From Planctomycetota bacterium (GTDB taxonomy: Bacteria > Planctomycetota > SZUA-567 > H5-PLA8): DNA of 64,000 bases. Position numbers and translations under genes: made by a program. The notes below the pieces were generated by a model. It had not been told where the DNA came from and ran no database searches. It saw only the letters and a program-made list of their open reading frames with translations. The stretch covers positions 160,001 to 224,000 of the forward strand of contig JBBRPR010000003.1 in assembly GCA_038227875.1 (NCBI GenBank), given 5' to 3'. Shown in pieces: positions 7,570 through 63,359 of the stretch; the stretch's first letter is position 1, and each line of letters opens with the position of its first letter.

Positions 7570-7735
7570 GATGGCATCGGGGATCGGGCATCAGGCATCG
7601 GTTGATCAGTACGACCGTGCAAATGAGTGCACGCCGTTGCGCTGAAGAACCGTACAGCTAAAGTCAGAACGTGCGATTGCGCCAGTGGCAGCATTCCCAC
7701 TGACCGATGCCGGATGCCCGATCCCCGATGCCATC
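7570..7735. repeat. Inverted-repeat element built from heptamer GGCATCG/CGATGCC
   Basis: Arms 7570-7602 and 7703-7735 are reverse complements with 1 mismatch in 33 nt. Confidence 0.9.
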
Positions 7736-7760
7736 AGTTTGAAGTGATAGGATGTTCACC

Positions 7761-8183
7761 ATGGCCGACGAGTTGAAAGCCGCTGGAGCAATCTGCTATC
7801 TCCCTGACGGCAAGAAGACGTACTTCCTGATCCTGCGATCCGCCAAAACAGGGGAGTGGGGGCCGCCGAAGGGGCATTCGGAGGAAGGGGAGACGGAGCT
7901 GGAGACGGCCGTCCGGGAACTCTACGAAGAGGCCGGGGTGCGGCGGGTCAGTTTCACGCCGGGCTTTCGCGAAATTCTGAAGTACACCGTCGAAAAGAAA
8001 GGCAAGACCCTCAACAAGGAAGTCGCGCTGTACTTGTGCAAGCTCGACGACGACGACGTCCGCATCTCCCCCGAACACACCGAAGCCCATTTCGCCACAC
8101 TCGATGAAATCGAACAGCTCGTGCCGCACGAGGACCTGCGGGAGGTCTTCCGCCGCGCGGCCGCGTTCGTTAAAGCAAACTAA
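7761..8183 (+). CDS. NUDIX hydrolase (Ap4A hydrolase-like)
   Basis: WGPPKGHSEEGETELETAVRELYEEAG Nudix box and ISPEH. The start could instead be 7752. Confidence 0.88.
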   Translation: MADELKAAGAICYLPDGKKTYFLILRSAKTGEWGPPKGHSEEGETELETAVRELYEEAGVRRVSFTPGFREILKYTVEKKGKTLNKEVALYLCKLDDDDVRISPEHTEAHFATLDEIEQLVPHEDLREVFRRAAAFVKAN

Positions 8184-8191
8184 ACGGCTCG

Positions 8192-8328
8192 TCTCACGCA
8201 AAGCCGCGAAGCCGCTAAGAACAGCAACGGATTTGGGGTGAGGCGGGATAAGCTCAAGGCAATTCGCGAGACTCTCAGGAACTAAAACCTAAAGCCGTTC
8301 GTGCTGTTCTTTGCGGCTTTGCGTGAGA
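8192..8328. repeat. Inverted-repeat element, 9-nt-periodic family (TCTCACGCAAAGCCGC termini)
   Basis: Perfect 16-nt terminal inverted repeat, with the same termini as the 21581-21789 element. Confidence 0.88.
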
Positions 8329-8344
8329 TTAGAAGACGTAGACC

Positions 8345-9283
8345 ATGGGCGAACTCGATCTTCTCAAACAATTCCGCGCGCATGCGCCGACGCATCCGAG
8401 CGTCATCGTCGGTCCCGGGCAGGACTGTGCGATTTTGTGCTGGCCGGCGGGGCGTGATCTGGCTTTTAAGATCGACCAGATCGTCGAAGGCACGCATTTT
8501 TTGCGCAGCGGGCCGGAGGCGGCGTCGGCTAAACAAATTGGCTGGAAAGCGATGGCCAAGGCCTGTTCGGATATTGCGGCGACGGGATACTGGCCGGTCG
8601 CAGCGACCGTCGCGGTGAACCTGGCGAAAGGCACGCCGCCGAAAGTGGCGCTGGAACTTTACGACGGCATCTGCGCGTGCTGCAAACGCTTCGGCTTTGC
8701 GCTGGCCGGCGGGGACCTCAGCGTTTCGAAAAACAAATTGAGCGTCGTGGTCTCGCTGCTCGGCGACGGTCCGAAAGGAAAAGCCTGGCTGCGGCGCGGC
8801 GCGAAATCCGGCGATCTGCTGATGGTCACCGGAACGCTGGGCGGTTCGCGCGGAGGAAAACATCTGGACTTCGAACCGCGTTTGAAAGAAGCGCGCGAAT
8901 TGAGAAAACTGATTCCCAACGGCGTTCACGCGTGCATCGACATCACCGACGGGCTCAGCCGCGATCTGCATCACATCTGCGAGGAGAGCCGCTGCGGCGC
9001 GGAAGTCTTCGAGACGGAAATTCCGTACAGCCGCGACGCCCGGAAGGCAGAAAAATCCGGTCCGCGGTCCGCGCTGGATCACGTGCTTCGCGACGGCGAA
9101 GATTTTGAGCTGCTCATGGCCGTCGATCCACGCGCCGCGGCCACACTGCTGAAGCGGTGGAAGCTTAAAACAAAACTGAGCGTAATCGGAAGGATAACGC
9201 CCGCAAAATTCGGTTGTAAATTGGTTAGAAGGGATGGAACACATGGCGAAATGGCCGATATAGGATATGAGCATCGCGCTTGA
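8345..9283 (+). CDS. thiL: Thiamine-monophosphate kinase
   Basis: GPGQDCA, EGTHF, SDIAA, GGD, DITDGLSRDL and GEDFELL. Confidence 0.93.
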   Translation: MGELDLLKQFRAHAPTHPSVIVGPGQDCAILCWPAGRDLAFKIDQIVEGTHFLRSGPEAASAKQIGWKAMAKACSDIAATGYWPVAATVAVNLAKGTPPKVALELYDGICACCKRFGFALAGGDLSVSKNKLSVVVSLLGDGPKGKAWLRRGAKSGDLLMVTGTLGGSRGGKHLDFEPRLKEARELRKLIPNGVHACIDITDGLSRDLHHICEESRCGAEVFETEIPYSRDARKAEKSGPRSALDHVLRDGEDFELLMAVDPRAAATLLKRWKLKTKLSVIGRITPAKFGCKLVRRDGTHGEMADIGYEHRA

Positions 9284-9334
9284 AGTCGGCCTATTTCCAT
9301 GGGCATTTTGAATCAAAATGGTTAGAATGAAAAG

Positions 9335-9829: not shown

Positions 9830-9863
9830 CGCTCGCGCTGTTTTTAACGTTTCAATTCAGGAG

Positions 9864-11342: not shown

Positions 11343-11355
11343 CGGGAAACGGGAA

Positions 11356-11537
11356 AAGGGGTCAGGGTTCAGCGGAGAGGGGTCAGAAGCGAGCGAGCCG
11401 GCTGACGAGAGTGAATGTCGGTTGGCGAATGACGACAACGAACAGCAAGCACGAAAGATATGGAAATTGGCAAGGGGTTACGGTCCCGGGATCAGCGCAC
11501 CAAACTCTGACCCCTGGCCCCTGACCCCTGACCCCTT
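11356..11537. repeat. Inverted-repeat element, heptamer GGGTCAG/CTGACCC
   Basis: Degenerate left arm 11356-11387; right arm 11506-11537 reads TCTGACCCCTGGCCCCTGACCCCTGACCCCTT. Confidence 0.75.
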
Positions 11538-11549
11538 GAGGTCGTCAGG

Positions 11550-14012: not shown

Positions 14013-14103
14013 CTCTCTGGAAATTCCGAATTTGAAAGTCAGAAACGGAGTGCCATGGCTTCCCGCCAGCGTTAAATTGACGGTGTAACGCGAGGAAGAA
14101 CCG

Positions 14104-22642: not shown

Positions 22643-22975
22643 TTACGCACGCGGAACCAATTTCACGCGGACGTCGCGCACGTTCAATCCCGCCGCTCGA
22701 AAGCAGTCTATCAGATTATGCTTCTGAAACCCCTCCAGTTCCTGAAAGAGAACGCTGGAGTCCGTTTCAATCGTGACGATGCCCACCTTGACGCTCGCCA
22801 CCGTCGCCCGCCCGGCCCGCTCGCCCAGCTGCTTCTGCAAAGCATCCTGAGCCAACCGCCGCCCCTTGAGCACCGCGGGACGCGGTTTGGCATCCTTGAC
22901 GATTTTTTTGACAAGGTCGCCGAAGTTGAAAGGGTTAACGGAGTCATTGGTCATTGGGGATTGGTCATCGGTCAT
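22643..22975 (-). CDS. DciA/DUF721-like protein (start uncertain; annotated N-terminus overlaps a repeat arm)
   Basis: Lies directly downstream of dnaN; GIVTIETDSSVLFQELEGFQKHNLI...VRDVRVK fits the DUF721 pattern. Confidence 0.7.
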   Translation of the reverse strand: MTDDQSPMTNDSVNPFNFGDLVKKIVKDAKPRPAVLKGRRLAQDALQKQLGERAGRATVASVKVGIVTIETDSSVLFQELEGFQKHNLIDCFRAAGLNVRDVRVKLVPRA

Positions 22976-23128
22976 TTTTCATTTAACAGCGCTTCGCCCT
23001 AGGCACATTGTCGTTCTAATAATGCGCTCTTGGTTCAAGACAGTCCACCAAAAACAGACGCTTCGCATAAAGCGAAGCGCTGTTAAATGACCCATGAAAA
23101 ATGACCGATGCCCAATGACCAATGACTC
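22941..23128. repeat. Inverted-repeat element, heptamer GGTCATT/AATGACC
   Basis: Arms 22941-22997 and 23072-23128 share ATTTAACAGCGCTTCGC / GCGAAGCGCTGTTAAAT. A solo arm lies at 42901-42943. Confidence 0.88.
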
Positions 23129-26966: not shown

Positions 26967-27080
26967 AGAAAAACGGGGTTCGCCGAAGCGGATTCGCGGC
27001 GAATCCCGACTCCCGAATTCCCATTCCCGCTGTTGCCGTAGCTGTTCTTTGCGTCGTTGCGTCTTTGCGAGAGATTAGAA

Positions 27081-41898: not shown

Positions 41899-42043
41899 GA
41901 CGAGGATTGAGATACCGCACGAAGCTATTGCCGTTCCATAATTTTTGACACATTCAAAGGGATTCCTTAAGCACGGTTTCCGTTCAGGCCTGAGCGCGAA
42001 CCTCAGTCCTCGGCCCTCAGTCCTTCTGTTAGGAGCGCAGCGA

Positions 42044-42844: not shown

Positions 42845-43271
42845 AGAAAGTATCTGTTTTGAATATCAGCGCAATTTTTAAGGAGGTACATTAGCCAACG
42901 GCGAAGCGCCGTTAAATGAAAAATGACCGATGACCCATGACTCATTTCCGTTTATCGCGTCGGCAATACGTCCCTTATTGGACCAATTAGCTTCTCGTTA
43001 GTAAGGTTATAAGCGGTGCAGGTTGCGACAGTTGTGCCGCGGGAATGGCCGATAATATTTTTATTGCACGTAGCGCATTGACCCAGACCAACTTACCGAA
43101 TACGATATGCACAATGTGTTGTTGGCGCACGGCGTTTGCTTTTTACGTTTGCCGACACGGCACCTTGAAGACGCACAAGCAGGTTTTTCCGGTCTTGTGA
43201 ATCGTGGAAGCTGTGTAGGATCAGCGGCTTACGTTTTAAGCTATCCGCAACGCGGACGGGACGGTGATGTG

Positions 43272-45190: not shown

Positions 45191-47176
45191 GTGGCACTGT
45201 CGCGCCGCAGCACCAAAACGGGACACAAGCCCGCTCCCGCCGCCCCTGCCGCTCCGGCCGCTGATGACAGCGAAGTCGAAGAAGTCTCGTCGGCCGACGA
45301 AATCAGCTCCGAGCCCGAAGAAGTGATGGCCCCGGCTCCTGCGCCCGCTCACGGAAACAATCCCCGCGCAGCTCGAGCCAGTGGTGCGACGGCGCAGCCG
45401 CGGACCACCCCCTCGATGCGCCCGCCCAAACGCAAATCCCCCAGCGGCCGGCGCAAGGAAACTCCCTCTCACGGCGGTGAAGACGGTGGCAGCGAAGGCT
45501 TGACGCGCTCGGCCCGCAGCACCACGCGCGGCGGGGCCGGAAGAGAAGGGGAATCGATCGGAGCTCTGCGGCGGCGCGGCTGGTCGCTGGCGATGAAATT
45601 CTCGATCTTCACCCTGCTGGTCTCCGTCCTGATCACCATGCTCTTTGGCGTCTTCTCGATCCGCGACCTGCGCGCTCACATGCTCGAAGAAATCATCCGT
45701 TCCGGCTACCAGGACGTGCTGGTCCTGAACGCCTTCGGCCAGCACGTGGTCAAGGACATGATCGGCAAACGCGACGCGGAATTTTCCAGCCTCGTCGGCC
45801 GCTACCGCGACCCGGCCAATCCCGAGTACAAAAAGGACCGCGATTACCTGCGCCGCATCCGCGACGGCGACCCGCGCATCCAGGACGTGGCCATCTTCGG
45901 ATCGGCCAGCGCCTCAAACGACCCGGCCTCGCCGATCGTGCGCGCCTCCGACGGCGACGCCACGCCTTCCACGGCCAACAGTTTCACTCACGGGCAGCTG
46001 GTGCAGACCAACTACGCCGACAAGGGTGCCAACGTCTACTGGATCGAATACGGCGGCAAGAGCTGCCTGCTGTTCCGCGTGCCGCTGGAACCCGCTCCGG
46101 GCACCGATTCCGAAAAGATGTATTCGTCTGCCAGCATTGTGCTCTCGGCCAGCGCCATCGATGAAGAGGTGGGCAAGCTGACTAAAAATCTGGTCATGGT
46201 CGGGCTGCTGTTTGTCGGCGCCGGCGTGGGCCTCTCGATGGCGATGGGCTTCCGCATCACCCAGCCGATCAACGGCCTGGTCGAAGACATCAACATCGTC
46301 TCGCAGGGCGACCTGGACCACGAGAGCACCGTGCCCAGCGAAACGCAGGACGAAATCGGACTGCTGGCGATGGCCTTCAACCGCATGACGCGCAACCTGC
46401 GCGAAGCCCGCGAGAAGGAACGCGATTCGGAGCGCATCGCCAGCGAACTGAATACGGCTCAGGCCATTCACGCCAAGCTGATGCCTGAAAAACTGCCCAA
46501 CCTGCCGGGCATCGACATCTCCACCGCCTACCACTGCGCCAAGGAAGTGGGCGGCGACTACTACGATTTCATCCCCGTCGGCGACGCCGAACATCTGGCC
46601 TTCGTGGTGGCCGACGTGGCCGGCAAGGGCATCCCCGGCTCGATGGTGATGGGGCAGATGCGCACGGTCCTGCGCATGATGGCCGTCAACAACATGTCGG
46701 CGATGGATGTGCTTTCCAAGACCAATTTCCACGTCGCGCGCGACATCAAGCGCGGCATGTTCGTCACCGCCATGTACGCGATTTTAAATCTGCGCACCCG
46801 CGACATGACCGTGGCCTCCGCCGGCCACAACCCGATGCTGATCTGGCGCGCCGCCACCAACACGATCGAAAAAGTGCGCCCCAACGGCATCGCTTTAGGG
46901 TTCGACAAGGGTCCCGTCTTCAACCGCACCATCCGCGAACAAAAGGTGAGGTTGCTCCACGGCGACCGCGTGGTGCTCTATACCGACGGCGTGGTCGAAG
47001 CGATGAACGAAGACCGCGACGAATGGGGCGACGAAGCGCTCGACGCCTTTACTCTGAAATACGCCACCGCCCCGTCGAACGAATACGTGCGCTTGCTGGT
47101 CAAAGCGCTGGAAGACCATAAAGGCCGCGCCGAACAGCACGATGATATTACGATCACCACGTTCCGCATCGTGTAA
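45191..47176 (+). CDS. Membrane HAMP + SpoIIE/PP2C phosphatase (RsbU-like)
   Basis: Two TM helices, HAMP motif DEIGLLAMAFNRM, VGGDYYD, DVAGKG, SAGHNP, YTDGVVEA and DDIT. Confidence 0.92.
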   Translation: MALSRRSTKTGHKPAPAAPAAPAADDSEVEEVSSADEISSEPEEVMAPAPAPAHGNNPRAARASGATAQPRTTPSMRPPKRKSPSGRRKETPSHGGEDGGSEGLTRSARSTTRGGAGREGESIGALRRRGWSLAMKFSIFTLLVSVLITMLFGVFSIRDLRAHMLEEIIRSGYQDVLVLNAFGQHVVKDMIGKRDAEFSSLVGRYRDPANPEYKKDRDYLRRIRDGDPRIQDVAIFGSASASNDPASPIVRASDGDATPSTANSFTHGQLVQTNYADKGANVYWIEYGGKSCLLFRVPLEPAPGTDSEKMYSSASIVLSASAIDEEVGKLTKNLVMVGLLFVGAGVGLSMAMGFRITQPINGLVEDINIVSQGDLDHESTVPSETQDEIGLLAMAFNRMTRNLREAREKERDSERIASELNTAQAIHAKLMPEKLPNLPGIDISTAYHCAKEVGGDYYDFIPVGDAEHLAFVVADVAGKGIPGSMVMGQMRTVLRMMAVNNMSAMDVLSKTNFHVARDIKRGMFVTAMYAILNLRTRDMTVASAGHNPMLIWRAATNTIEKVRPNGIALGFDKGPVFNRTIREQKVRLLHGDRVVLYTDGVVEAMNEDRDEWGDEALDAFTLKYATAPSNEYVRLLVKALEDHKGRAEQHDDITITTFRIV

Positions 47177-47191
47177 GCGCGGCGCGCTGGC

Positions 47192-47448
47192 GCGCGAGGG
47201 GTTAGGGGTCAGGGGCCAGGGGTCAGAAGTGAGCGCGGTAGATGGGATGAAGTGCGCGCAGGGCGGTTGAGTGGAATGAACGAGAAGTAAGAGAAGAGAG
47301 AGAAGTGAGAGAAGTAACGGAAAGACGAAGGGGCTAAAGGAGGGGCACGGTCGAGTTGCGTTAGATCCGACGAAGGGCGAAAAACAGTGTTCCGGCGACG
47401 GGCGGTCGAACTTCTGACCCCTGGCCCCTGACCCCTGGCCCCTCGCGC
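47192..47448. repeat. Inverted-repeat element, heptamer GGGTCAG/CTGACCC, with internal GAGAAGNNA 9-mers
   Basis: Arms 47192-47230 and 47410-47448 have 2 mismatches in 39 nt. Four GAGAAG-based 9-mers lie at about 47282-47317. Confidence 0.9.
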
Positions 47449-47475
47449 TTTAGCGCGCCGCACTGGGAATCAGCC

Positions 47476-47952
47476 ATGTCGAAGCTCATTCACCGCGAAC
47501 TGTCCGTACCGGCCAACACCAGTTATCTGGCTCAGGTCCGGCAGGCTGTCACCGAGGTGCTCGGGAAGGACATGTTCACGCCCGTCAAGGCCAACCTCGT
47601 CGCGCTGGCCGTCGACGAAGCCGTCGCCAACATCATGGAACACGCCTACGAACACCTGGAAGCTCATGCGCGCGTGACCAAGGACGTCCAGGTGATCCTC
47701 GATGCCACCCCCGAACGGTTGCTGGTGATTATCCGCGACCACGGCATGGCCTTCGATCCGCGCAAGGCCCCCGACGTCGACATGCGCGAACACGTCAAGA
47801 AGGGCAACACCGGCGGCTTAGGCATTTTCCTGATGCGCCGGATCATGGACGAAATTCACTACACCTACAAGCAGGGCGTTCACAACGAACTGAAGATGGT
47901 GAAGTATGTGGACCGGACGACGGCGGCGACGGTGGCGCCAGTGAAGAAGTGA
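47476..47952 (+). CDS. Anti-sigma factor kinase (RsbW-like HATPase)
   Basis: LAVDEAVANIMEHAY, IRDHGMAFDP and GGLGIFLMRRIMDE. Confidence 0.92.
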   Translation: MSKLIHRELSVPANTSYLAQVRQAVTEVLGKDMFTPVKANLVALAVDEAVANIMEHAYEHLEAHARVTKDVQVILDATPERLLVIIRDHGMAFDPRKAPDVDMREHVKKGNTGGLGIFLMRRIMDEIHYTYKQGVHNELKMVKYVDRTTAATVAPVKK

Positions 47953-47964: not shown

Positions 47965-48078
47965 CGGGATTCGGGAATCGGGAATCGTAACAGCGGGAAA
48001 TCGAAAAACGGGGGAAGCGGGAACTGGGATGGGGAATCGTGAAGGCGGGGCGCGGCGAATGCCGATTCCCGAATCCCG
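47965..48078. repeat. Inverted-repeat element, heptamer GGGAATC/GATTCCC
   Basis: CGGGATTCGGGAATCGG (47965-47981) and its exact reverse complement (48062-48078). Confidence 0.8.
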
Positions 48079-48178
48079 ATTACCGCTTTTCGGATTCCAG
48101 TTTTGCGATCTAGAGTTGGACGGTAGGCACCTTTGATGCTACTTAAAGGAATGGAATTTTCGGGAGGAGTCAACGACG

Positions 48179-48573: not shown

Positions 48574-48769
48574 GAATTCAAAATTCAAAATTATAAATTC
48601 AAAAACGCACGCGGTCCTTAGCGTGTGTTTGAATGAAGTGAGCACCCGACTCCAATAGGGGTCAAAAAAGCCTCAAAAAAAGACCATGGTATTCCCGGCC
48701 CTTCCGGTAAAACGGAAGGCAGTCCAATCCGCGTGCGTTTTTGAATGTTTACTTTTAAATTTTGAATTC
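48574..48769. repeat. Inverted-repeat element, heptamer AAATTCA/TGAATTT
   Basis: Arms 48574-48614 and 48729-48769 share TTCAAAAACGCACGCGG / CCGCGTGCGTTTTTGAA. Confidence 0.85.
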
Positions 48770-48776
48770 ACACCCG

Positions 48777-51071
48777 ATGCCCAACACCGCCGACCTCGAC
48801 CTTGCGCTGACCACCGACACCGGTCCGCTCATCCGCGTGCTGCCTCCGGCGGTGACCTCCCGCATTGCCGCCGGCGAAGTGGTCGAACGCCCCGCTAGCG
48901 TGGTGAAAGAACTGGTCGAAAACGCCCTCGACGCGGGAGCCGCCCGGATCACCGTCGATATCGCCGGCGGCGGCCTGGATCTCGTGCGGGTCAGCGACGA
49001 CGGCCGGGGCATGTCCCCCGCCGACTTGAAATTGTGCGTGCTCGAACACGCCACCTCCAAGATCCGCAGCGCCGACGAACTGCCCCTGCTGACTACGCTG
49101 GGCTTCCGCGGCGAAGCCCTCCCCTCGATCGCGTCGATCGCGCACTTCTCCATCACCACGCGCACGCGCCAGGCCTTAAGCGCCAGCCGCATCGAAATCG
49201 ACGGCGGCGAGCCGGCTCAGCCGGAGGTCAAAGACGCCGCCGGAGCCTACGGCACGACGGTGGAAGCCCGCGACCTGTTTTACAATCTGCCCGCTCGAAA
49301 GAAGTTCCTCAAAGGCCCCGGTTCAGAAGCCGCCGCCTGCACCGACACGCTCCTGAGATTGGCCCTGACCCGCCCCGACGCCGGCTTTACCCTGCTGCAA
49401 GACCGCCGCGAAGTCTTCTCCGTCGCCCCGGTCTCTCCAGTCACTTCCGGCACGCCGGACGCAATCGCCGCCGCCGCGTCAGCGCTTCGACATTCGACAT
49501 TCGACATTCGGCATTACGTGAAGCGCGCCCGCGAACTGCTCGGCCGTTCCAACACCGAACAGTTGTTGGAACTCGATGCGATCGGCACCGCCCGCGAGAT
49601 CCCCGGCGAGAGCGTGGATGAAAAAATCCAGCTCCCGCCTGGCGCCATCGACCTGCCCGAAATTCCCGCCGGCTACCGCGTCTATGGCCTGATCTCGCCC
49701 CCGGCGATCACGCGTCCCAACCGTTCGGCCGTGTACCTGACCGTCAACGGCCGCCCCGTCAAAGACCGCACCCTGACCAGCGCTCTGATGGAAGCCTACC
49801 GCCATCTGCTCCCGCCCAAGCGCTACCCCCTGGCGGTGCTCTTTTTCGAACTCCCCGGCGCCGACGTCGACGCCAACGTTCATCCGACGAAAACCGAAGT
49901 CCGCTTCCGCATCCCCGGCCTGGTCTACGCGCTGCTCCACCACGCCATCCGGCGCGCGTGCGGCAACGAGGGAATCTCTGCCTTCCGGCGCAGTGAATCC
50001 GCCGTGCCGGCTCAGCCGCATGTGCCGCTGGGCGCGCCGCGCGTGGACGAGCGGCAGCAGACGTTTGATCTGTGGCCGCGCGCGGACGACGGACAGAATT
50101 GCGGATTGCGGATTGACGGGCCGGACGTGCTGGCCGCAAAGCCTGCGGTTCAAAATTCGGCCGGTTGCGGATTGCGGATTGCGGATTGCGGATTGGCGGG
50201 GGACGCACCCGGCAAAGTCGCACCGATGTCCGGCGGGGACATGGTTGCTGGGACGGTTGCGACGAGTGGAACTTCTGCTGAGGCGCCTGGAACCGTTCAC
50301 GAAGCAGCGGCGCCGTATTCAGCGCCCGCAACGGCCAAATTCAATCCGCCCTTGCCGTCGCTCAATGCAGCGGCGCGCATTCCCACCGCCGCGCTTACGC
50401 CGTCTAATCCGCAATCCGCAATCCGCAATCCGCAATCACCTCCGCCCAAACCGCCCGCCCCTTTCCGCGTGCTGGGTCAGGCGGGCGGCGCGTACATCGT
50501 CCTGGAAGACGACACCGGCGTGAAGCTGATCGACCAGCATGCGCTCCACGAACGCGTGCTCTTTGAAGTGTTCCTGAAGAAAGCCCACAGCACCGCCCAG
50601 GGCGAAGCTCAAGGGCTGCTCGTCCCTCAGGTTTTCGACCTGACCCCCGTCCAGCTTTCCGTTTTCACTCAGGATGATGCCGCTCAGCAGTTGCTTTCCC
50701 ATCTGGGCTTCAGCGTCGATCTCTTCGGCGACCGCGCCATCGCCGTGCGCGCCGTCCCGGCGCTGTTCCGTTCGGCCAGCAAAGCCGCGCTGGTGTTGGA
50801 TGTGCTCGACGCCTTAAGTGAAACCTCCGACGCCGATCCGTCTTTAACGCGCGCCAAGCACCGCTACAGCTTCCGCGAAAAGGCCGCGTACATGCTGGCC
50901 TGCAAAGGCGCGCTGAAAGCCGGCGAACGCCTGACGATCGAACAGATGACGGCTCTGGTGGAAGATTACCGCCGCTGCGCCGGACCTCATGGGTTCACCT
51001 GCCCGCACGGCAGGCCTGTGGCGCTGGAGCTGGGATGGGACGAGTTGGAGAAGGCGGTGGGCCGGGTGTAA
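48777..51071 (+). CDS. mutL: DNA mismatch repair endonuclease MutL
   Basis: IAAGEVVERPASVVKELVENALDA, HATSK, GFRGEAL, DANVHPTK, DQHALHE, QGLLVP, ACK and CPHGRP. Confidence 0.96.
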   Translation: MPNTADLDLALTTDTGPLIRVLPPAVTSRIAAGEVVERPASVVKELVENALDAGAARITVDIAGGGLDLVRVSDDGRGMSPADLKLCVLEHATSKIRSADELPLLTTLGFRGEALPSIASIAHFSITTRTRQALSASRIEIDGGEPAQPEVKDAAGAYGTTVEARDLFYNLPARKKFLKGPGSEAAACTDTLLRLALTRPDAGFTLLQDRREVFSVAPVSPVTSGTPDAIAAAASALRHSTFDIRHYVKRARELLGRSNTEQLLELDAIGTAREIPGESVDEKIQLPPGAIDLPEIPAGYRVYGLISPPAITRPNRSAVYLTVNGRPVKDRTLTSALMEAYRHLLPPKRYPLAVLFFELPGADVDANVHPTKTEVRFRIPGLVYALLHHAIRRACGNEGISAFRRSESAVPAQPHVPLGAPRVDERQQTFDLWPRADDGQNCGLRIDGPDVLAAKPAVQNSAGCGLRIADCGLAGDAPGKVAPMSGGDMVAGTVATSGTSAEAPGTVHEAAAPYSAPATAKFNPPLPSLNAAARIPTAALTPSNPQSAIRNPQSPPPKPPAPFRVLGQAGGAYIVLEDDTGVKLIDQHALHERVLFEVFLKKAHSTAQGEAQGLLVPQVFDLTPVQLSVFTQDDAAQQLLSHLGFSVDLFGDRAIAVRAVPALFRSASKAALVLDVLDALSETSDADPSLTRAKHRYSFREKAAYMLACKGALKAGERLTIEQMTALVEDYRRCAGPHGFTCPHGRPVALELGWDELEKAVGRV
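50165..50435. repeat. Intragenic inverted-repeat element, heptamer GATTGCG/CGCAATC, inside mutL
   Basis: 50165-50194 and 50406-50435 are perfect 30-nt reverse complements. An extra partial arm lies at 50098-50115. Confidence 0.92.
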
Positions 51072-54605: not shown

Positions 54606-54683
54606 GCGGGATTCGGGAATCGGGATTCGGCATTCGAAACGGCGGGGAGCGGCGAATCCCGATTCCCCACTCCCGAATCCCGC
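54606..54683. repeat. Inverted-repeat element, heptamer GGGAATC/GATTCCC
   Basis: GCGGGATTCGGGA...TCCCGAATCCCGC in the divergent promoter gap. Confidence 0.8.
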
Positions 54684-54707
54684 TTCTCGATCCATATCTT
54701 CCCTTGC

Positions 54708-56300: not shown

Positions 56301-56396
56301 AGGACTGAGGACTGAGGAGAACCGCCGCTGACGCGGGTTTTTCCAACCGGGAAATTTTTAAGCGAAGCGCCGCGCTGTAACCTCAGTCCTTCTGTT
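56301..56396. repeat. Inverted-repeat element, heptamer ACTGAGG/CCTCAGT
   Basis: AGGACTGAGGACTGAGG...CCTCAGTCCT. A related solo arm lies at 42001-42030, sharing CCTCAGTCCTTCTGTTA. Confidence 0.7.
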
Positions 56397-56437
56397 AAAA
56401 ACGACAAAGTGCACCACAAACACGGGAGACACACCAC

Positions 56438-56728: not shown

Positions 56729-56816
56729 GACTGGCTTCCGCTGCGTGTCAGTCTGACTTTCGGGCCACGTGGCCCGAAGGTCGGGCCGCTGTGTCACCGG
56801 ACTTCCGAGGTGTTCG

Positions 56817-58448
56817 ATGCAACTGGACGACAGCAAAGTCGCGGAACTGGTCTCACGCGTGGTGGCTCGCTTGAAGCAAAACGGGGCGGCGCCATCGCTG
56901 GCCAAGGCGCCAGCACCGAAAGTCGCACACGCTCCGGCAGCGGAGCACACCGGGAGTACCAACTGGGTGCGTTCCAAACCCGCGCGTGCCGACGATCGGC
57001 CCATCCAGCGCAAGACGGGTTTCTCGTCCTCAGGACCCACTCCCGCGGTCGCGAAAAAAACGGCTGCGCCTGCTTCGACGTCAGCACCCACGGTCGCGAA
57101 GGCTGCTCCGGCCACCGGCGACGGCGTGTATACCGATGTCGATGCCGCCTGCCGCGCGGCCGAACGTTCCTATCAGGAACTCACCAAGCTCGGCTTCAAC
57201 GCGCGCTTCAAACTGATCGAAGTTTTCCGCGCCGCGGCGCTGGCCAACATCGAACGCTGGTCGGTGGAAGCCGCGCGCGAAACCGGCATGGGCCGCGCTG
57301 AGGACAAGCTCAAGAAAAACCGTCTCGTCACGCTGCGCACGCCCGGCCCGGAAATCCTGGTCAACCCCACGACCTTCGCCGGCAGCGACGGCATCACCAG
57401 CATCCGACTCGACCCCTGGGGCGTGATCGCCTCGATCATTCCCTGCACCAATTCCACCGAGACGGTGATCAACAACGGCATCGGAATGCTCGCCGCCGGC
57501 AACGCGGTGGTCTTCAATCCGCACCCGGTCGCGAAGAAAATTTCCTGCGACGCCGTCCGGACGCTCAACCAGGCATTGTCCGCCGCCGGATTTCCCAAGG
57601 AACTGCTCTGCATCCTCGCCGAACCGACCGTCGAGTCGGCAAACGCGCTGATGAAACACCCGCTCACGGGCATGGTCCTGGTCACTGGCGGCGGAGCCGT
57701 CGTCGACGTGGCGATGAAGTGCGGCAAGCGTGCCGTCTGCGCCGGGCCGGGCAACCCGCCCTCGGTGGTCGACGAAACCGCGTGTCTCGACCGCGCCGCC
57801 AAGGCGCTGGTCTCCGGCGCCTCGCTGGACAACAACGTCGTCTGCACCGACGAGAAAGCCGTCATCGCCGTCGCCTCCATCGCCGACGCGCTGAAACAGA
57901 AAATGCTCGCCCGGGATTGCGTCGAAGTCACTGGCGCGAACATCGAAAAGCTGACGAAGATCATCCTGAGCGATCCGGGCAGCCCGACGCATCACGGTAT
58001 GACCAACAAGAAATTCGTCGGCAAGAATCCCTCGGTGATCCTGCGCGAAATCGGCATGAACGTCGACGACCGCGTGCGCCTGGCGATCGTCGACGTCGAG
58101 AAGGATCACCCGTTGATCTGGACCGAGCAGCTGATGCCCGTGCTGCCGATCTGCCGCGTCAAGGACGCCGACGAGGCGATCACCTTCGCCGCCGCCGTCG
58201 AAGGTGGACGCCGCCACACCGCGTCGATCCATTCGCAGCGATTGGACCGCATCACGCGCTTCGCCAACACGCTGAACTGCTCGATCTGCGTCGCCAACGA
58301 TTCCAACTACGCGGGCTTGGGGCTCAACGGCGAGGGCTACACCAGTTTCTCGATCGCCACGCCGACGGGCGAAGGCCTGACGACCGCGCGCACGTTCTGC
58401 CGCGAGCGGCGGCTGGCGGTGTGCGGGGGAGGGCTGGGGAGGGGCTAA
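56817..58448 (+). CDS. BMC-type acylating aldehyde dehydrogenase (EutE/PduP family) with N-terminal encapsulation peptide
   Basis: [43 protein letters not shown] and TPTGEG; N-terminal [12 protein letters not shown]. Confidence 0.93.
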
Positions 58449-58450
58449 CA

Positions 58451-58615
58451 GCATTGCGGATTTCGGATTGCGGATTGCGGATTGGACGGCGCCGCTCGGT
58501 TGTGTGTCCGGACGCCGAAGCTTTGAGAGGACGGATTTGTGGAACGTAAAAGCGCTGTGAAGTTTTCGACTCTCGCGGTTCCAATCCGCAATCCGCAATC
58601 CGAAATCCGCAATGC
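58451..58615. repeat. Inverted-repeat element, heptamer GATTGCG/CGCAATC
   Basis: Perfect 36-nt arms at 58451-58486 and 58580-58615. Confidence 0.95.
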
Positions 58616-58618
58616 CCT

Positions 58619-59152
58619 TCAAGCCACTGCCACCACGACAATGGACGCAATCAGAATGACCAGCGCCACCGACAACTTCACCGCGACGCCGACGGCTCGG
58701 CCGAGTACCGCGCCGAAGGCGACCTGCAGGTTGGGGTCGAGTTTTTTCTGGTGGCGCATTTCGCCGAGGATCGCGCCGACGAAGGTGCCGATGAACGAGG
58801 CGACGACCGAACCGATCACGGGAATTGGCACCAGCCCGCCGAAGAAGGCTCCACCAAAGCCGCCGATCAGCGCGCCCCACGCGGCGGATTTCGAACCGCC
58901 GAATTGCTTCGAACCGAATTGGCCGGCCAGCAGATCGATGCCTTCAGCGACCAGACCGACGAGAAAAAATCCGGCCACCCAGTACCACGGCATCATTTTA
59001 CCGCTAGTGCCCATGCAGAGGATAAACGCGGCGGCGGCCTGCACCAGCGGACCGGGCAGACCGAAGGGCACGATGAAAACGCCGGCGAGCTGCACCAGGA
59101 AGAAGCCGATCAGCGCGAGGCTGCCGGCGAGTACGTGGAGGAAGTTTTGCAT
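58619..59152 (-). CDS. DUF456-family membrane protein
   Basis: PFGLPG, KQFGGSKSAAWGALIGG, PIPVIGS and GAILGE. Confidence 0.8.
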   Translation of the reverse strand: MQNFLHVLAGSLALIGFFLVQLAGVFIVPFGLPGPLVQAAAAFILCMGTSGKMMPWYWVAGFFLVGLVAEGIDLLAGQFGSKQFGGSKSAAWGALIGGFGGAFFGGLVPIPVIGSVVASFIGTFVGAILGEMRHQKKLDPNLQVAFGAVLGRAVGVAVKLSVALVILIASIVVVAVA

Positions 59153-59240
59153 CGTCGTCGCTGCCCGAATGGAACCTTACGCAGAGTACCGCCGCCCGGG
59201 CCGCTCACCAACTGGAATTAACGGAAGCTGGAATTAACAG

Positions 59241-60014: not shown

Positions 60015-60163
60015 GAATTGGTGCCAGTGTGATCGCGCGAGAATGGAACTCGGTTGTGTGGCGTTGTGATCGGGAAGTTCGCGAACGACAGCGTTGGATA
60101 CATTCATGAGAACCCGCCCTATGCGAAGCTCCAAAGAACATCCGCTCTCGGAACGCGCCACTC

Positions 60164-60597
60164 CCAAGAGCCAAGAGCCAGGAGCCAAGAGCTGCCCCAC
60201 AATCATGACCATCGAACAGGTCGCCGCCTATCTGCAGCTCCATCCGCAGGTCGTTTACCGCCACGTGCGTGCCGGGACTCTGCCAGCCAGCCGCATTGGG
60301 CGGACGATCCGATTTAAGAAGTCGGTGCTCGACGAATTTCTGGAAAAAGGCGCGTGGGAATTTGCTCATCAGTATCTTACGTACCTGGCGCGCGTGAAGT
60401 CCGGCAGCGTGTCCGTTGCCGGTGAGATGCCGAAACCCGCGACCCTCACTGCCCGCGCCACTAGCGCCGCCGTGCCGATGGCATCACAGACTCCGCCGGA
60501 AATTCCGGACGCACTCAAGCAATTCTCCGCGGACATCGACTAACCATGGCGCACCGCCCAGCCACCCCCAAAAGCCAAGAGCCAAGAGCCAGGAGCC
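60164..60597 (+). repeat. Two direct arrays of heptamer CCAAGAG bracketing the HTH gene
   Basis: Four units at 60164-60192 and four units at 60568-60597. Confidence 0.85.
60205..60543 (+). CDS. Excisionase-type HTH (HTH_17) DNA-binding protein
   Basis: MTIEQVAAYLQLHPQVVYRHVRAGTLPASRIGRTIRFKKSVLDEFL. Confidence 0.85.
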   Translation: MTIEQVAAYLQLHPQVVYRHVRAGTLPASRIGRTIRFKKSVLDEFLEKGAWEFAHQYLTYLARVKSGSVSVAGEMPKPATLTARATSAAVPMASQTPPEIPDALKQFSADID

Positions 60598-60603
60598 ACC
60601 CAC

Positions 60604-60864
60604 ATGATCCTCGGTAAAATCGTCGGCACCGTCACCTCCACGCGTAAACAGGAGACGCTGGGCGGCTTCAAATTCCTGCTGATCCAGAAGCGCATGAAGC
60701 AGGGCGACGGCGATGCCGCGCTGGGCGAAATGTTCGTCGCGGTGGACCTCACCGGCGCGGGCACCGGCGAAGAAGTCATCGTCGCCACCGGCCGCGCCGC
60801 GCGCATCGCGATGGGCAAGGAGGATCTGCCAATTGACGCCGCGGTGATTGGGATTGTGGATTAG
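60604..60864 (+). CDS. BMC vertex pentamer BMC-P (EutN/CcmL family)
   Basis: MILGKIVGTVTSTRK, VAVDLTGAGTGE, GRAAR and PIDAAVIGIVD. Confidence 0.96.
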   Translation: MILGKIVGTVTSTRKQETLGGFKFLLIQKRMKQGDGDAALGEMFVAVDLTGAGTGEEVIVATGRAARIAMGKEDLPIDAAVIGIVD

Positions 60865-61028
60865 CGGCGCGAAAATCTTCCGCCGCCGCCGCGACCGCCT
60901 TGCACAGTCAAGAGTTCTCCCTGCTCATGCGGCGGCCTGATTGCATACGCACGCGTCCCGAATCCCGTATCCCCAATCACGGCCGTTATTCACTTCACCC
61001 CGCGCGCATTTTCGATAAGACATTCCCC

Positions 61029-61631
61029 ATGCATGTCATGACTGAAAACGAGATCCGCAATGTCGCCAGCCGTATCGAAGCGGGTGGGACCTTCACTGTT
61101 CCGCCGGAGACGATCCTGACGCCGCTGGCGCGCGATTACCTCCATGGGCGCGGGATTCAGGTCGTCGATCAGCACGGCGGAAAGTCGCACGCAAAGCCCG
61201 CCGCGTCCGCGCCGTCGTCCGATGACGCGCTGGTCAGCGCCGTCGCCGACGAAGTCAGCCGCATCCTTCGCGAACAGCAGGCGCCGCAGGGAAAGTCAGC
61301 CGCGCCCGCCGATCCCGCAGCCGTGGTGGCGCGCAAGACCATCGCCGGTGAAGGCACGTCCAACCGCGCCGTAGTCTGGGCGATCGGCGGCGACCGGCCG
61401 GGCATTCTCGCCGACGTCGCGGAACTCCTCAGTCGCCACAAGGCCAACATTCTCGAAATCAACCAGACCATCCTCAGCGGCGTCTTCGCCATGGTCGTAA
61501 TCGTGGACCTCAAAGGCGTCACGCTGGCCTTCGCGGAATTCAAGGCGGAGCTCGAAGCGCTCGGCAAGAAGCTGGGTGTGAATCTCTCGGCGCAGCGGGA
61601 TGAGATTTTTCAGTACATGCATCGAGTGTGA
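61029..61631 (+). CDS. ACT-domain protein (UPF0237/COG3830-type) with BMC-type N-terminal extension
   Basis: C-terminal GGDRPGILADV...NILEINQTI...FAM...QRDEIFQYMHRV; N-terminal MTENEI...ILTPLARD; amphipathic LVSAVADEVSRIL. Confidence 0.85.
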   Translation: MHVMTENEIRNVASRIEAGGTFTVPPETILTPLARDYLHGRGIQVVDQHGGKSHAKPAASAPSSDDALVSAVADEVSRILREQQAPQGKSAAPADPAAVVARKTIAGEGTSNRAVVWAIGGDRPGILADVAELLSRHKANILEINQTILSGVFAMVVIVDLKGVTLAFAEFKAELEALGKKLGVNLSAQRDEIFQYMHRV

Positions 61632-61636
61632 CGGGG

Positions 61637-61722
61637 AGTTTTGAAATTTGAGTTTTCAGTTTTGAGTTGTGTGGCGACCGGCGATAGCACAACTCAAAAC
61701 TAAAAACTCACAACTAAAAACT
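61637..61722. repeat. Inverted-repeat element, heptamer GAGTTTT/AAAACTC
   Basis: Arms 61637-61671 and 61688-61722. Confidence 0.85.
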
Positions 61723-61807
61723 GCCCTACCGATCCCGCACTGGGTTTGTGCGGCGTATGGAGTAATCTATTTTCATGCGCGCAGGATGGCGTTTGGGAGC
61801 GGAAACT

Positions 61808-63262
61808 ATGCTTAAAGCACGGCAGGCGTCCTTGATTGTCGGTGAAACCAGCTCCTCGCGGCTGCTGGAAGGAATCGGCGTCAACTGGTGCGACGCGTTT
61901 GGACTCGGCGGCGAGACCGGGATGGGGCAGCGCGGGATGCCGCTCAACACGCCGGCCATTCCGCTGCTCGACAATATTTCCGGCTGGGAGACGGTGCTCG
62001 ATGAGCTGACCGTGCTCAAGGCCGGCTGCATCCGCTTCATGCTGCCGCCCGAAGGCTTCATCACCAAGCGCGGCACGATGGATTTCGACTGCCCGCACTT
62101 TCAGCGCCTCGAGCGCCTGAACGCGTGGGCCGGAGCCAATGGCGCGAGCATCATTCTCGATACGATTCACGTGCCGCATCATCTTCAGGTCAAGGGCGAG
62201 GACGGTCCCGGCGTGGCGCTGAACAACCGCGCGGCGCTCGACCCGACGACCTTCGCCGAGAAATTTGCCGGTCCGCTCTTGGATTACTGTCTTTCCGAGC
62301 GCGGCTGGAACCAGATCCGCTACTACAGCCCGATCAACGAGCCGCTCTACGGCGGCATCTACCACCATCCCAAGGGCGACACCTACCGCGCGTACGCCGG
62401 GCTGATGGCTTCGCTGCGCAAGGAACTGGTCGACCGCGACCTGGTGCCGCAGCGCATTTCGCTGATCGGACCGTCGGCGCCGTCGGTGCAGCAGTGGCCG
62501 GTTCCCGACCTGCACGCGCGCGGGCTGGACATCGACCCGCTGCTCGACGCTTACGATCAGCACGAATATTCCGCACGCTTCGACGGCGATCCGCCGAATT
62601 CGAACGGGGATTCGATTCCGATGAGCGAACTGATCGAGCGGCATCTCACGCCGCACGTCAAGTACGCCGAATCGCGCGGCAAGCCGTTTCTCATCACGGA
62701 AATGAAGCACTCCTATTTTGGCGCCAAGCAGGGCGATCCCAACGGCCCCGCCACGCATGACGCGTTTCTGCTCGACGCCGAATTCGCGATCCGCGCGATC
62801 AACGCCGGTGTGCAGGGGTTGATGCGCTGGAGCTTCCTCAACCCCGGCGACATCGACGGCCACTGGCAGTTTTTGGAAACGGCGGATAATTCGTACCGGC
62901 GCTGCGAGAACACGTTCTACGGTTACGCCACGCTGATCCGCTACGCGCGCCCGCACGCGGATGTGCTGCAGAGTTCCGTGCAGAGCAATTTCTACCCGTG
63001 GCCGCACGTCCACGCCTGCGCGTTGCGCAAGTCGCCGCAGGGCGATGTGACGGTGCTGGTCGTCAACGACCATCCCAGCGAGCAGATCGAACTGAACGTG
63101 AAGCTGCCCGCCTCGCTACGCAAGAAGGTCAACGTGATTCGCAACGACCGCACCTTGAAGCACGCCAAGGTCGACGAAGTGAAACGCGAATTCACCGACC
63201 GCCTCCCGCCGCGCAGCCTGACGGCGTATACGACCTTGGAGTACGATCCGTTGACTCGTTGA
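61808..63262 (+). CDS. Clan GH-A-like glycoside hydrolase (TIM barrel + beta-sandwich), no signal peptide
   Basis: YSPINEP (putative acid/base), PFLITE (putative nucleophile), and C-terminal VTVLVVN...LPPRSLT. Confidence 0.65.
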   Translation: MLKARQASLIVGETSSSRLLEGIGVNWCDAFGLGGETGMGQRGMPLNTPAIPLLDNISGWETVLDELTVLKAGCIRFMLPPEGFITKRGTMDFDCPHFQRLERLNAWAGANGASIILDTIHVPHHLQVKGEDGPGVALNNRAALDPTTFAEKFAGPLLDYCLSERGWNQIRYYSPINEPLYGGIYHHPKGDTYRAYAGLMASLRKELVDRDLVPQRISLIGPSAPSVQQWPVPDLHARGLDIDPLLDAYDQHEYSARFDGDPPNSNGDSIPMSELIERHLTPHVKYAESRGKPFLITEMKHSYFGAKQGDPNGPATHDAFLLDAEFAIRAINAGVQGLMRWSFLNPGDIDGHWQFLETADNSYRRCENTFYGYATLIRYARPHADVLQSSVQSNFYPWPHVHACALRKSPQGDVTVLVVNDHPSEQIELNVKLPASLRKKVNVIRNDRTLKHAKVDEVKREFTDRLPPRSLTAYTTLEYDPLTR

Positions 63263-63272
63263 TAGCTTTGCT

Positions 63273-63359
63273 GGGTAGTTTTTAGTGATGAGTTTTGAGT
63301 TTTGAATTGATCTTCTGCAACACAACTCAAAACTAATAACTCAAAACTCAAAGCTACCC
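63273..63359. repeat. Inverted-repeat element, heptamer GAGTTTT/AAAACTC
   Basis: Arms 63273-63309 and 63323-63359, with GGGTAG...CTACCC termini. Confidence 0.85.

Follow-up and report, generated by a model that had tools for sequence, protein, structure and literature searches.

Heptamer-armed hairpin elements of about a dozen families in a Planctomycetota genome and their apparent kinship with PF05635 cassettes

Introduction

What are small genetic elements that keep the period of their repeats but not the repeated word? The question is raised by a 64,000-nt stretch of Planctomycetota DNA (positions 160001-224000 of contig C3 in assembly G000; hereafter the window), which holds 12 complete inverted-repeat elements and 7 single arms built from tandem 7-nt units. 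A preliminary description, made from the letters of the window, had listed these arrays, ascribed them to a mechanism keyed to the 7-nt periodicity that would spread mobile elements or RNA-structure and processing signals, and mentioned, as unverified, similar arrays beside four-helix-bundle genes of family PF05635. Members of this family, also known as S23p or 23S rRNA intervening-sequence protein, are Avd-like pentameric four-helix bundles. All coordinates named there are borne out by Tandem Repeats Finder (78 rows in the window, 33 of period 7) and by direct reading of the sequence.

The elements of the window are gene-less counterparts of a heptamer-armed PF05635 cassette and belong to a population of about 1000 arrays in some 12 families. 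The reading that we favour, and for which we see about as much reason for doubt as for belief, is that they are inserted elements of many families whose arms act as putative binding arrays and which spread at the DNA level. Three loose ends may belong to one phenomenon: the excess of heptamer repeats long noted in Xanthomonas, Nostoc, Geobacter and Beggiatoaceae, the origin of rRNA intervening sequences, and the function of PF05635/S23p, a large family with solved structures that is homologous to the accessory protein of diversity-generating retroelements. Assembly G000 is a good test case because a dozen heptamer families coexist in it.

Results

A genome-wide population of period-7 arrays

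G000 is a metagenome-assembled draft of 9.34 Mb in 176 contigs with 59.6% G+C, estimated to be 88% complete with 4% contamination. With strict arrays defined by at least 3.5 copies and a score of at least 40, and families labelled by their Tandem Repeats Finder consensus units, the genome contains 549 strict arrays of period 7, compared with 48, 18, 48 and 34 of periods 6, 8, 9 and 10, respectively. Real sequence amounting to 2.83 Mb yields 206 such arrays and a third-order Markov simulation of it yields 0, so that the supposed enrichment of period 7 over its neighbours (18-48 arrays) is confirmed. After removal of overlaps, 1019 arrays of at least 2.5 copies remain, most of them belonging to about a dozen words; by canonical rotation these are ACCCCTG (87 arrays), AAAACTC (81), AATCCGC (78), AATGTCG (69), AAGAGCC (61), AATGACC (57), AATCCCG (55), AAAATTC (50), ATCGGGC (50), ACTGAGG (41) and AAAATGG (34). 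The number of units per array lies between 2.5 and 18.9 with a median of 4.3, and the length peaks at 29-32 nt (373/1019), which corresponds to four full heptads and the start of a fifth.

The same arms also turn up in environmental data. Contigs with ATTGCGG arms (window 49708-51009 and 58171-58821) reach a summed depth of about 200-1290 in three sediment metagenome runs, with other centres between the arms; the ATTGCGG word is very common in those sediment communities, and the depth sums many loci and organisms and is not a copy number. Four DNA runs yielded, on short contigs only, other elements with the same arms and different centres.

Convergent half-elements with conserved arms and free centres

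A complete element consists of two half-elements of 45-70 nt that converge on an unrelated, non-palindromic centre. From the outside inwards, each half-element runs through an end that often reads (G/T)AACNG, some 4.3 heptads in which the variant positions are constant, and a short inner flank that is specific to a family and common to its copies. Nearest-neighbour arrays at most 1.5 kb apart form 194 inverted same-word pairs (median spacer 78 nt), 19 direct pairs and 155 pairs of unrelated words. Up to 250 nt apart, same-family pairs are convergent in 104 cases, tandem in 1 and divergent in 0; between 250 and 700 nt the counts are 8, 3 and 0, and beyond 700 nt the proportions are random. The orientation of the left arm is constant within each family (25/25, 22/22, 21/21, 16/16, 13/13 and 11/11), and the strand running 5' to 3' from the outside to the centre is G+T-rich in 181/186 elements and in 29/30 family labels. 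The two arms of an element are unequal in unit number.

One build is thus shared by many families, as had been described, but the view that their heptamers are unrelated does not hold throughout: GGCATCG units share a composite arm with GGGGATC units, GGGAATC is a variant form of GGGATTC, and an outer AACNG motif is common to at least six heptamer families. Directly outside the first heptad this motif is present in 88% of GGTCATT arms, 71-82% of GGCATCG/GGGGATC arms, 51-52% of GGGAATC/GGGATTC arms and 43%, 38% and 36% of ATTGCGG, CCATTTT and ACTGAGG arms, respectively, the range of 36-88% covering seven family labels and five or six distinct families, since two of the labels denote one composite arm. 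For comparison, the motif occurs in 5.6% of 17-mers from intergenic DNA, the background, and in 0-23% of cases at the inner side of the arms. There is no enrichment of AACNG in the GGGGTCA (9%) and GAGTTTT (12%) families; the former carries a small GC-rich stem-loop of variable sequence just outside each arm.

Variant units recur at fixed positions in the copies of a family, for example at the second unit in the ATTGCGG family and at the third in the GGGGTCA family. As these position-specific variants and the conserved flanks show, the arms are not free-running repeats but copies of family-specific modules of 45-70 nt. A mechanism keyed to the 7-nt periodicity itself, as first proposed, was not demonstrated. 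Within a family, partner arms resemble each other no more closely than they resemble the arms of other elements (identity 0.886 vs 0.890, 0.976 vs 0.973, 0.899 vs 0.898 and 0.837 vs 0.835), and therefore arm sequence, not pairing, is what is conserved. The 160 spacers are mostly non-homologous to each other, true centre sequence being shared by only about 8-10 element pairs. A snap-back origin with palindromic centres was rejected, as left-versus-right identity within an element (0.497/0.451/0.434) resembles that of non-partners (0.479/0.437/0.463) and the mean fold z is -0.84.

Insertions at operon junctions and within mutL

The operon in which several of the elements lie (geneA, an anti-sigma-type gene, an antagonist gene and, next to them, mutL) is syntenic in ten relatives from other genera of the same family. 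Its coding DNA is 72-80% identical, and at this distance exact insertion boundaries are not readable. The junction between geneA and the anti-sigma-type gene measures 7-13 nt in 7/10 relatives (G002, G004, G006, G008, G010, G012 and G014), 96 nt in G015, where a different heptamer hairpin is present, and 299 nt here. It is occupied by a GGGGTCA hairpin (47176..47464; arms 47197-47226 and 47414-47443; spacer 187 nt; z -9.7, this and all following z values being relative to dinucleotide shuffles) with a small GC-rich stem-loop immediately outside each arm; the genes to either side are one that ends at 47176 and the anti-sigma-type one at 47476-47952. The following junction, to the antagonist gene, is 3 nt long in G006, G012 and G014, 122 nt in G015, where yet another heptamer word fills it, and 226 nt here with a GGGAATC hairpin (47965..48085; arms 47965-47987 and 48062-48085; spacer 74 nt; z -2.8). 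At the third junction, before mutL, ATTGCGG arrays begin at the stop codon in G001 and G008 and a GGATTTT pair is present in G003, while in the window an AAATTCA hairpin, which is not G-rich, lies directly upstream of mutL (48575..48768; arms 48575-48604 and 48739-48768; spacer 134 nt; z -6.6). Other heptamer families are thus found at these junctions in G001, G003, G008 and G015.

The mutL gene itself (48777..51071, + strand) carries heptamer arrays in frame in the linker between its domains, namely a single TTCGACA array of 4.3 units (49486..49515) and ATTGCGG-family arrays (50098..50437) that comprise a short array at 50098-50115 and a hairpin with arms at 50165-50195 and 50406-50437 (spacer 210 nt; z -6.8). 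The encoded MutL of 764 aa groups with Planctomycetota (best match 53% identical), and the stretches derived from the arrays at 49486, 50098, 50165 and 50406 are insertions absent from four other planctomycete MutL proteins. MutL of G001 has a similar arm-encoded peptide in the same place and a further element elsewhere in the linker, and arrays are also present in mutL of G008 and G015. Taken together, these comparisons show that the elements were inserted in particular lineages, at the ends of genes and within a protein linker that tolerates them. The comparison of orthologous loci called for in the preliminary description revealed empty sites, with operon junctions of 3-13 nt in six sister genera (G002, G004, G006, G010, G012 and G014) that are filled by elements here; it is because of these empty sites that we regard the elements as gained rather than fixed.

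Arms shared with PF05635 cassettes

Two PF05635 matches were found in the whole of G000. The first is a cassette at C9:108834-109377, in which the gene (C9:108976-109365) is enclosed by arms of AGGGGTC x4.3 and CTGACCC x4.3 and which, as read from the flanking translations, sits between a murB-like gene and ddl. Its protein matches the pentameric S23p structure of X. campestris (PDB 2gsc, E 5.8e-23), and its arms have the third-unit variant and the inner flank of the gene-less GGGGTCA copies at window 11357 and 47197, so that the GGGGTCA family shares homologous arms with a PF05635 cassette of its own genome. The second, more distant homologue (C10:24118-24432, E 1.9e-13, open frame of 183 aa) has no adjoining heptamer arrays, the nearest being a GAGTTTT hairpin 1.8 kb away. 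No PF05635 gene is present in the window, and decayed PF05635 genes as the source of the centres were rejected, as neither tblastn nor the profile detected a remnant in any of the 160 spacers genome-wide (0/160). Concealment of further cassettes by assembly gaps was considered as well; 11 arrays lie at most 150 nt from a contig end where 5.8 are expected, which is only a mild excess.

Short purine-rich tandem repeats were observed in the centre, adjoining the inner end of the left arm, in the gene-less GGGGTCA element (window 47282-47317, 9-nt unit, 4 copies) and in the C9 cassette upstream of the start codon (about 108917-108950, 8-nt unit, about 4 copies); these two repeats do not align with one another.

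Among 30 relatives, 19 have PF05635 matches. Both arms were present, by a fixed criterion, at 31 of 43 loci examined in relatives; the second batch among these 43 had arrays at 14/14 loci, on both sides at 13/14. Nearly every relative's locus carries a heptamer word of its own, and the G/T-rich inward strand recurs in 28/31 independent cassettes. The link to PF05635 genes mentioned at the outset is hence corroborated by the GGGGTCA-armed cassette of G000 and the 31/43 double-armed loci of its relatives. At one of the loci in G008 (L123, G008:C10:333532-336849) the left arm shifts at 1420-1471, inside a single array, from 7-nt units to four 6-nt GGGTTA units.

Similarity between the proteins declines with the distance between their heptamers: mean BLAST scores for distances 0-5 are 138, 74.5, 62.5, 47.4, 45.4 and 18.3 bits (32 proteins, 496 pairs), and the mean observed for distances of at most 1 was reached by 1/5000 label permutations. 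The set includes one protein (L133) from the unpublished genome G017, of which the result is independent. These scores show that PF05635 genes and heptamer words move and diverge in step. GGTTGCT arrays are absent from G000 and G008. They are present at many loci in three genomes, G014, G028 and G021, all of which possess a PF05635 gene flanked by arms of this word. The density of strict arrays per 100 kb is 0, 0, 1.0 and 1.7 in the four genomes that lack a PF05635 match and 2.0, 2.0, 5.9 (G000), 10, 13.8 and 23 in six genomes with 4, 11, 2, 9, 8 and 11 matches, respectively; the densities come from samples of 60-100 kb (G000: whole genome), and as the genomes are related the comparison does not amount to a statistical test.

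Cognate genes of two families that are orphans in G000 are found in sister genera, with GCTCTTG/CAAGAGC arms in G008 and TTGTCAT/AATGACA arms in G003. A gene-bearing cassette with homologous arms was thus found within G000 for GGGGTCA and only in sister genera for CCAAGAG and GGTCATT-like arms; none was found for ATTGCGG. The latter is the best-conserved family (97% between arms) and, together with its variant unit, is abundant in G000, G001 (112 pattern matches), G003 (240) and G008 (294); its arrays are absent from G015 and G009.

Further elements of the window

All 12 inverted pairs of the window fold as long hairpins (z -2.8 to -15.8), and their measured spacers of 16-210 nt agree with the range first given (roughly 15-210 nt). 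Rfam returned 0 matches at gathering score within the window. The first hairpin belongs to the GGCATCG/GGGGATC composite family (7573..7732; arms 7573-7601 and 7704-7732; spacer 102 nt; z -9.4) and is flanked by two + strand genes, the upstream one having its stop 15 nt before the element. It is followed by a second GGGGTCA hairpin (11357..11536; arms 11357-11386 and 11507-11536; spacer 120 nt; z -4.4) and by a GGTCATT hairpin with outer AACGGA/AACAGA motifs (22943..23126; arms 22943-22976 and 23086-23126; spacer 109 nt; z -15.8). Between divergent genes lies a hairpin of the GGGATTC/GGGAATC family (54607..54691; arms 54607-54636 and 54653-54691; spacer 16 nt; z -5.3). The ACTGAGG hairpin (56301..56397; z -4.2) has its left arm at 56301-56318 and a short right arm at about 56380-56397. 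The ATTGCGG hairpin at 58453..58613 (arms 58453-58484 and 58582-58613; spacer 97 nt; z -9.3) shows the usual second-unit variant of its family, ATTTCGG, and an outer AACAG motif. Two tight hairpins of the GAGTTTT family, which is not G-rich, complete the series (61636..61722, arms 61636-61668 and 61691-61722, spacer 22 nt, z -7.3; 63277..63352, arms 63277-63305 and 63324-63352, spacer 18 nt, z -3.8).

The single arms include two of GGGAATC type, one with AACAG at its outer end (27000..27029) and one with an outer AACGG motif (60956..60978), an ACTGAGG arm (about 42001..42031) whose terminal sequence, AACAG included, is that of the right arm at 56380, and a GGTCATT arm with an outer AACGG motif (42923..42945). 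Two single CCAAGAG arrays in the same orientation end 12 nt upstream of an ATG at 60205 (60164..60192) and 5 nt upstream of an ATG at 60604 (60568..60598). They bracket a small open reading frame (60205-60543), and their position before a start codon is unlike the usual position after a stop codon.

Placement relative to genes and behaviour of the stems

Genes were called with a crude heuristic caller (6572 genes, 84.6% coding). On this basis 893/1019 arrays are fully intergenic, and 175 short pairs lie at 105 co-directional, 49 convergent and 19 divergent junctions, with 1 within a gene and 1 at a contig edge. Relative to all junctions (4271 co-directional, 1066 convergent and 1059 divergent), elements are commoner at convergent (49/173 vs 17%) and rarer at divergent ones (19/173). 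Gene 3' ends face elements 206 times, with the stop codon less than 20 nt from the array in 144 cases, most often (47) at a distance of 3-5 nt; 143 times it is a gene 5' end that faces an element, and only 22 of these are within 20 nt. In 77/223 arms bearing AACNG the motif is overlapped by the stop codon of the gene, as TAAC or TGAAC.

Intergenic location, proximity to stop codons, the excess at convergent and deficit at divergent junctions, and long stable stems would all suit RNA elements selected by the host, that is, transcribed hairpins that stabilise the upstream mRNA or provide RNase III sites uncoupling the genes of an operon. REP (repetitive extragenic palindromic) and Correia-type elements offer a comparison for such a role in mRNA stabilisation or processing. 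The homologous rRNA intervening sequences are moreover cut by RNase III (PMC4990558; this and the other papers cited by PMC number are represented here by portions of their text, to which our statements refer). The stems themselves, however, behave otherwise. Alignment of arm to arm gives 4281 matches in 4776 positions (about 90% complementarity), and the mismatches, in which transversions are about twice as frequent as transitions, show no strand asymmetry: wobble-compatible mismatches number 29 in sense and 35 in antisense for + strand genes and 33 and 29 for - strand genes, with no excess, and there is no element-specific compensation. A T-run of at least 4 follows the hairpin in 8% of cases in sense and 7% in antisense among 106 elements between co-directional genes, and this lack of a sense-side excess of U-tracts also rules out intrinsic terminators. 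Among the main families 296 arrays are unpaired; a degenerate partner accompanies 88 of them, which leaves 208 genuine solos, and the latter, where they lie between co-directional genes, show no preference (65 with and 63 against the direction of the genes). The tests of wobble bias, U-tract and solo-arm orientation therefore lend no support to the earlier proposal of RNA-structure or processing signals. Considering also that copies lie within a coding region (mutL) and that sister genera have no element at all at the same junctions, we regard a host RNA function as unlikely. The 23S rRNA gene is not in the G000 assembly, which places an rRNA copy of the element beyond reach.

Conservation of arm sequence instead of pairing, and a dyad-symmetric build unlinked to the direction of transcription, are what one would expect of iteron-like double-stranded sites for host proteins with a role in nucleoid organisation or regulation, the PF05635 genes being merely frequent passengers. 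The omega repressor of plasmid pSM19035, for instance, binds 7-bp heptads. The orphan ATTGCGG family, which four genera have retained, variant unit included, in the absence of a cognate PF05635 gene, also fits this explanation, and a site for a global regulator was one interpretation given by the authors of the Geobacter study in the portion of that paper considered here (PMC2700814). Yet about 12 words would require about 12 host proteins, of which none was identified; the arrays avoid divergent, promoter-containing regions; and one and the same junction has different words or none across genera, unlike a conserved regulatory site. We consider this explanation improbable.

Candidate enzymes, cargo and the origin of the arms

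Searches for an enzyme covered RVT_1 and Y1 and revealed no candidate for the heptamer elements; other transposase families were not searched. Both RVT_1 genes belong to type XIII retrons with RT_XIII (E 2e-160 and 2e-158) and SWIM_XIII (E 1e-177 and 2e-184), located at C83:9500-15500 (L204: 2507-3895 and 4120-5838, both on the - strand) and C4:143500-150000 (L205: 2698-4338 and 4618-6318, both on the - strand). A reverse transcriptase link was rejected, these being defence genes (their proximity to arrays was not tested). Eight Y1_Tnp matches comprise 4 full genes and 4 partial matches. The full IS200/RAYT-like transposase genes (RAYT, REP-associated tyrosine transposase; C72:36122-36574, C9:158288-158740, C79:186-632 and C3:47816-48160 in contig coordinates, all outside the window) are flanked on both sides by short GC-rich palindromes unlike the heptamer arms. 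With heptamer arrays within 1 kb at 0/4 of them, a RAYT link was rejected, and the genes with their palindromes look like a separate REP/RAYT-type system in the same genome. Ku is present in G000.

Several host genes, namely those for an AraC-type regulator, two PhyH, AXE1, a xylose-isomerase-like protein, a CAAX protease and COX3, are enclosed by two arrays of one family at a distance of 0.9-1.25 kb. They were rejected as cargo and put down to chance because arrangements beyond 700 nt are random. Four small open reading frames of 130-157 aa, with a G+C fraction of 0.44-0.51 at third codon positions (GC3), were observed among centres of 250-620 nt, in those of 490-620 nt belonging to elements of four different families: L082:159-632 (+ strand, C18:30413, 157 aa), L086:199-591 (+ strand, C50:7865, 130 aa), L087:195-665 (- strand, C59:21212, 156 aa) and L089:234-626 (+ strand, C7:197415, 130 aa). 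None of the four matched a Pfam or NCBIfam family, L082 and L089 have no homologue in the 30 relatives, and the atlas leads are weak, the clusters concerned being unnamed or immunity-like. The four frames may represent another kind of cargo gene, or may not be genes at all.

A bolder idea, which we rate as a long shot, is that the arms are written: a template-directed polymerase would extend both 3' ends of broken or opened DNA with the same G/T-rich module, directed by a family-specific guide factor for which the Avd-like PF05635 pentamer would be a candidate, and the ends would then be joined with filler DNA, much like two telomere-like tracts fused head to head. Unlike ordinary transposition, this would explain the G/T-rich inward strand of elements and cassettes (181/186 and 28/31), and likewise why partner arms are no more alike than non-partner arms, why the centres are unique and non-palindromic, and why unit number is unequal between arms. 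Against it stand the fixed variant units and non-repeat flanks, which require a template of 45-70 nt, and the fact that the only reverse transcriptases of the genome are the two type XIII retron defence genes. We know of no such polymerase. If arm-writing and a recognition code from protein to heptad were true, they would amount to a transposase-free, programmable repeat-writing system.

Ordinary simple-sequence repeats arising by slippage that favours 7-nt units (an idea of Mrazek et al. 2007, as cited in the relevant parts of PMC4679880 and PMC4692102), with G-rich arrays persisting through quadruplexes of four G-tracts (PMC4692102), would account for the variable unit number (2.5-18.9), for one metagenome contig that lacks one 7-nt unit at 60962 (depth 2.6, weak) and for the preference for about four units, but are already contradicted as a sufficient explanation, and scarcely credible, in view of the position-specific variant units and non-repeat flanks common to copies, the strictly convergent orientation, the whole half-elements at junctions that are 3-13 nt long in relatives, and the impossibility of four G-tracts in GAGTTTT (81 arrays), GGTCATT (57), AAATTCA (50) and GCGGATT (78). 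Only the GGGGTCA and GGGAATC families have the at least four G-tracts of a quadruplex; GAGTTTT, AAATTCA, GGTCATT, GCGGATT and CCAAGAG units contain no G-tract of 3.

Discussion

Based on the arm modules, the empty sites in sister genera and the cassettes of relatives, we propose the following hypothetical scenario for the inserted elements. Their arms would be putative sequence-specific binding arrays in which one heptad is contacted by one protein subunit, with the PF05635 pentamer as the prime candidate, and this would explain why the sequence of the arms is kept and the centre is free. The elements would propagate as DNA along a route independent of the known transposase families. Where they are transcribed, stems of 25-45 bp would be cut by RNase III, by analogy with the homologous rRNA intervening sequences, and such cleavage would be a side effect of transcription rather than the reason for the elements' existence.

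Several observations weigh against this scenario. A PF05635 gene was found for only 1 of about 12 families in an assembly that is 88% complete, and ATTGCGG arms accompany 0/22 of the PF05635 genes examined in G000, G001, G003 and G008 (one weak hit in G008 excluded); this family is abundant without a cognate gene, so that a family can stay abundant and well conserved in a genome that does not encode its cognate protein. The idea of one word for one protein gene is thereby limited, since it is the best-conserved family that lacks a gene of its own in four genera. G014 has 11 PF05635 matches yet only 2 arrays per 100 kb, and two cassettes with GGGGTCA-type arms (L119 and L128) are not mutual nearest relatives. 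The correlation between protein and heptamer can be explained by co-inheritance alone. Furthermore, copying of whole elements predicts shared centres, yet only the few pairs mentioned above share any. Orphan families, unique centres and equal similarity of partner and non-partner arms are a misfit with copy-and-paste of whole elements; the same three features fit either elements of long standing whose arms are under selection, or arms that are made afresh with every insertion. Finally, no target-site duplication was seen at element ends, and no enzyme, excision or insertion event was seen for the heptamer elements.

What is common to the families is the 7-nt period, about 4.3 units, the convergent polarity with its G/T-rich inward strand, the placement at stop codons and, in many, the AACNG end; what is free is the heptamer word itself and the centre. 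For the host, the elements lengthen operon junctions by 100-300 nt where these otherwise measure 3-13 nt, and add in-frame peptides to MutL. They are also likely to mislead gene callers and metagenome assemblers.

Our searches, which did not extend to subscription journals, found no paper tying dispersed heptamer arrays to PF05635 genes. Parts of the arrangement are in print. In Xanthomonas, arrays of GGGAATC prefer about four units, are intergenic in about 90% of cases, lie nearer to the upstream stop than to the next start, are rare between divergent genes and form 70-75 convergent inverted pairs per genome; Rehm et al. (2015) explain such arrays by G-quadruplexes and extend the account to Nostoc and to GGGGA(C/T)T words (PMC4692102). 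The arrays of G000 resemble those of Xanthomonas and Nostoc in having about four units, an intergenic position near stop codons, few divergent junctions and convergent pairs, and the GGGAATC family is itself present here. In contrast to the one G-rich word per genome of that account, as far as the portion we cite goes, G000 has about 12 words, some of them not G-rich, as well as modular arms with fixed variants, shared outer motifs and a link to PF05635. In Geobacter metallireducens, 49 elements with four GGACCGG-type heptamers are intergenic and intragenic, and 15 sites have five MTYCTGA heptamers, a class that is mostly paired; Aklujkar et al. (2009) read these as regulatory RNA elements or sites of (global) regulators (PMC2700814). 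More than one heptamer family per genome and pairs are common to Geobacter and G000, and the comparative insertion evidence and the link to a protein family distinguish G000 from what the cited part of that paper reports. TAACTGA direct repeats were described by MacGregor in 2015 (in the excerpted text of PMC4679880).

The closest match to a gene-bearing element is the 23S rRNA intervening sequence of Coxiella burnetii, which has terminal inverted repeats, an S23p open reading frame, excision by RNase III, and tandem heptamers (3 plus 1 units) that differ in number from strain to strain; Warrier et al. (2016) also cite the pentameric X. campestris structure (PMC4990558). Like the intervening sequences of Coxiella and Leptospira, as far as these are covered there, the G000 cassette is an inverted-repeat stem around a PF05635 gene. 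Unlike them, the elements of the window are gene-less, and they are located not in rRNA but within protein-coding genes or in the gaps between these. On whether the elements match an already described repeat family, the answer is in part yes: the Xanthomonas GGGAATC arrays and several Geobacter families of four or five heptamers are in print.

Heterocystous cyanobacteria are said to carry short tandemly repeated repetitive (STRR) heptamers, several dispersed words in direct arrays, reportedly described by Mazel and colleagues in 1990 and used for fingerprinting; one STRR unit is presumably identical to that of the GGTCATT family, which a literature search could not confirm, and the paired half-elements of G000 are unlike the STRR arrays so described. 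REP elements and bacterial interspersed mosaic elements (BIME), with their RAYT transposase, and MITEs (miniature inverted-repeat transposable elements) such as Correia elements are small intergenic hairpin repeats present in hundreds of copies. The heptamer elements are like REP and MITE families in their placement after stop codons, their depletion at promoters and the coexistence of gene-bearing and gene-less forms with common ends, and their convergent half-elements provide the terminal inverted repeats of a MITE. They are unlike both in having no conserved interior, no target duplication that was seen and no known transposase among the types searched, and, unlike RAYT, the gene associated with them encodes a non-enzymatic-looking four-helix bundle.

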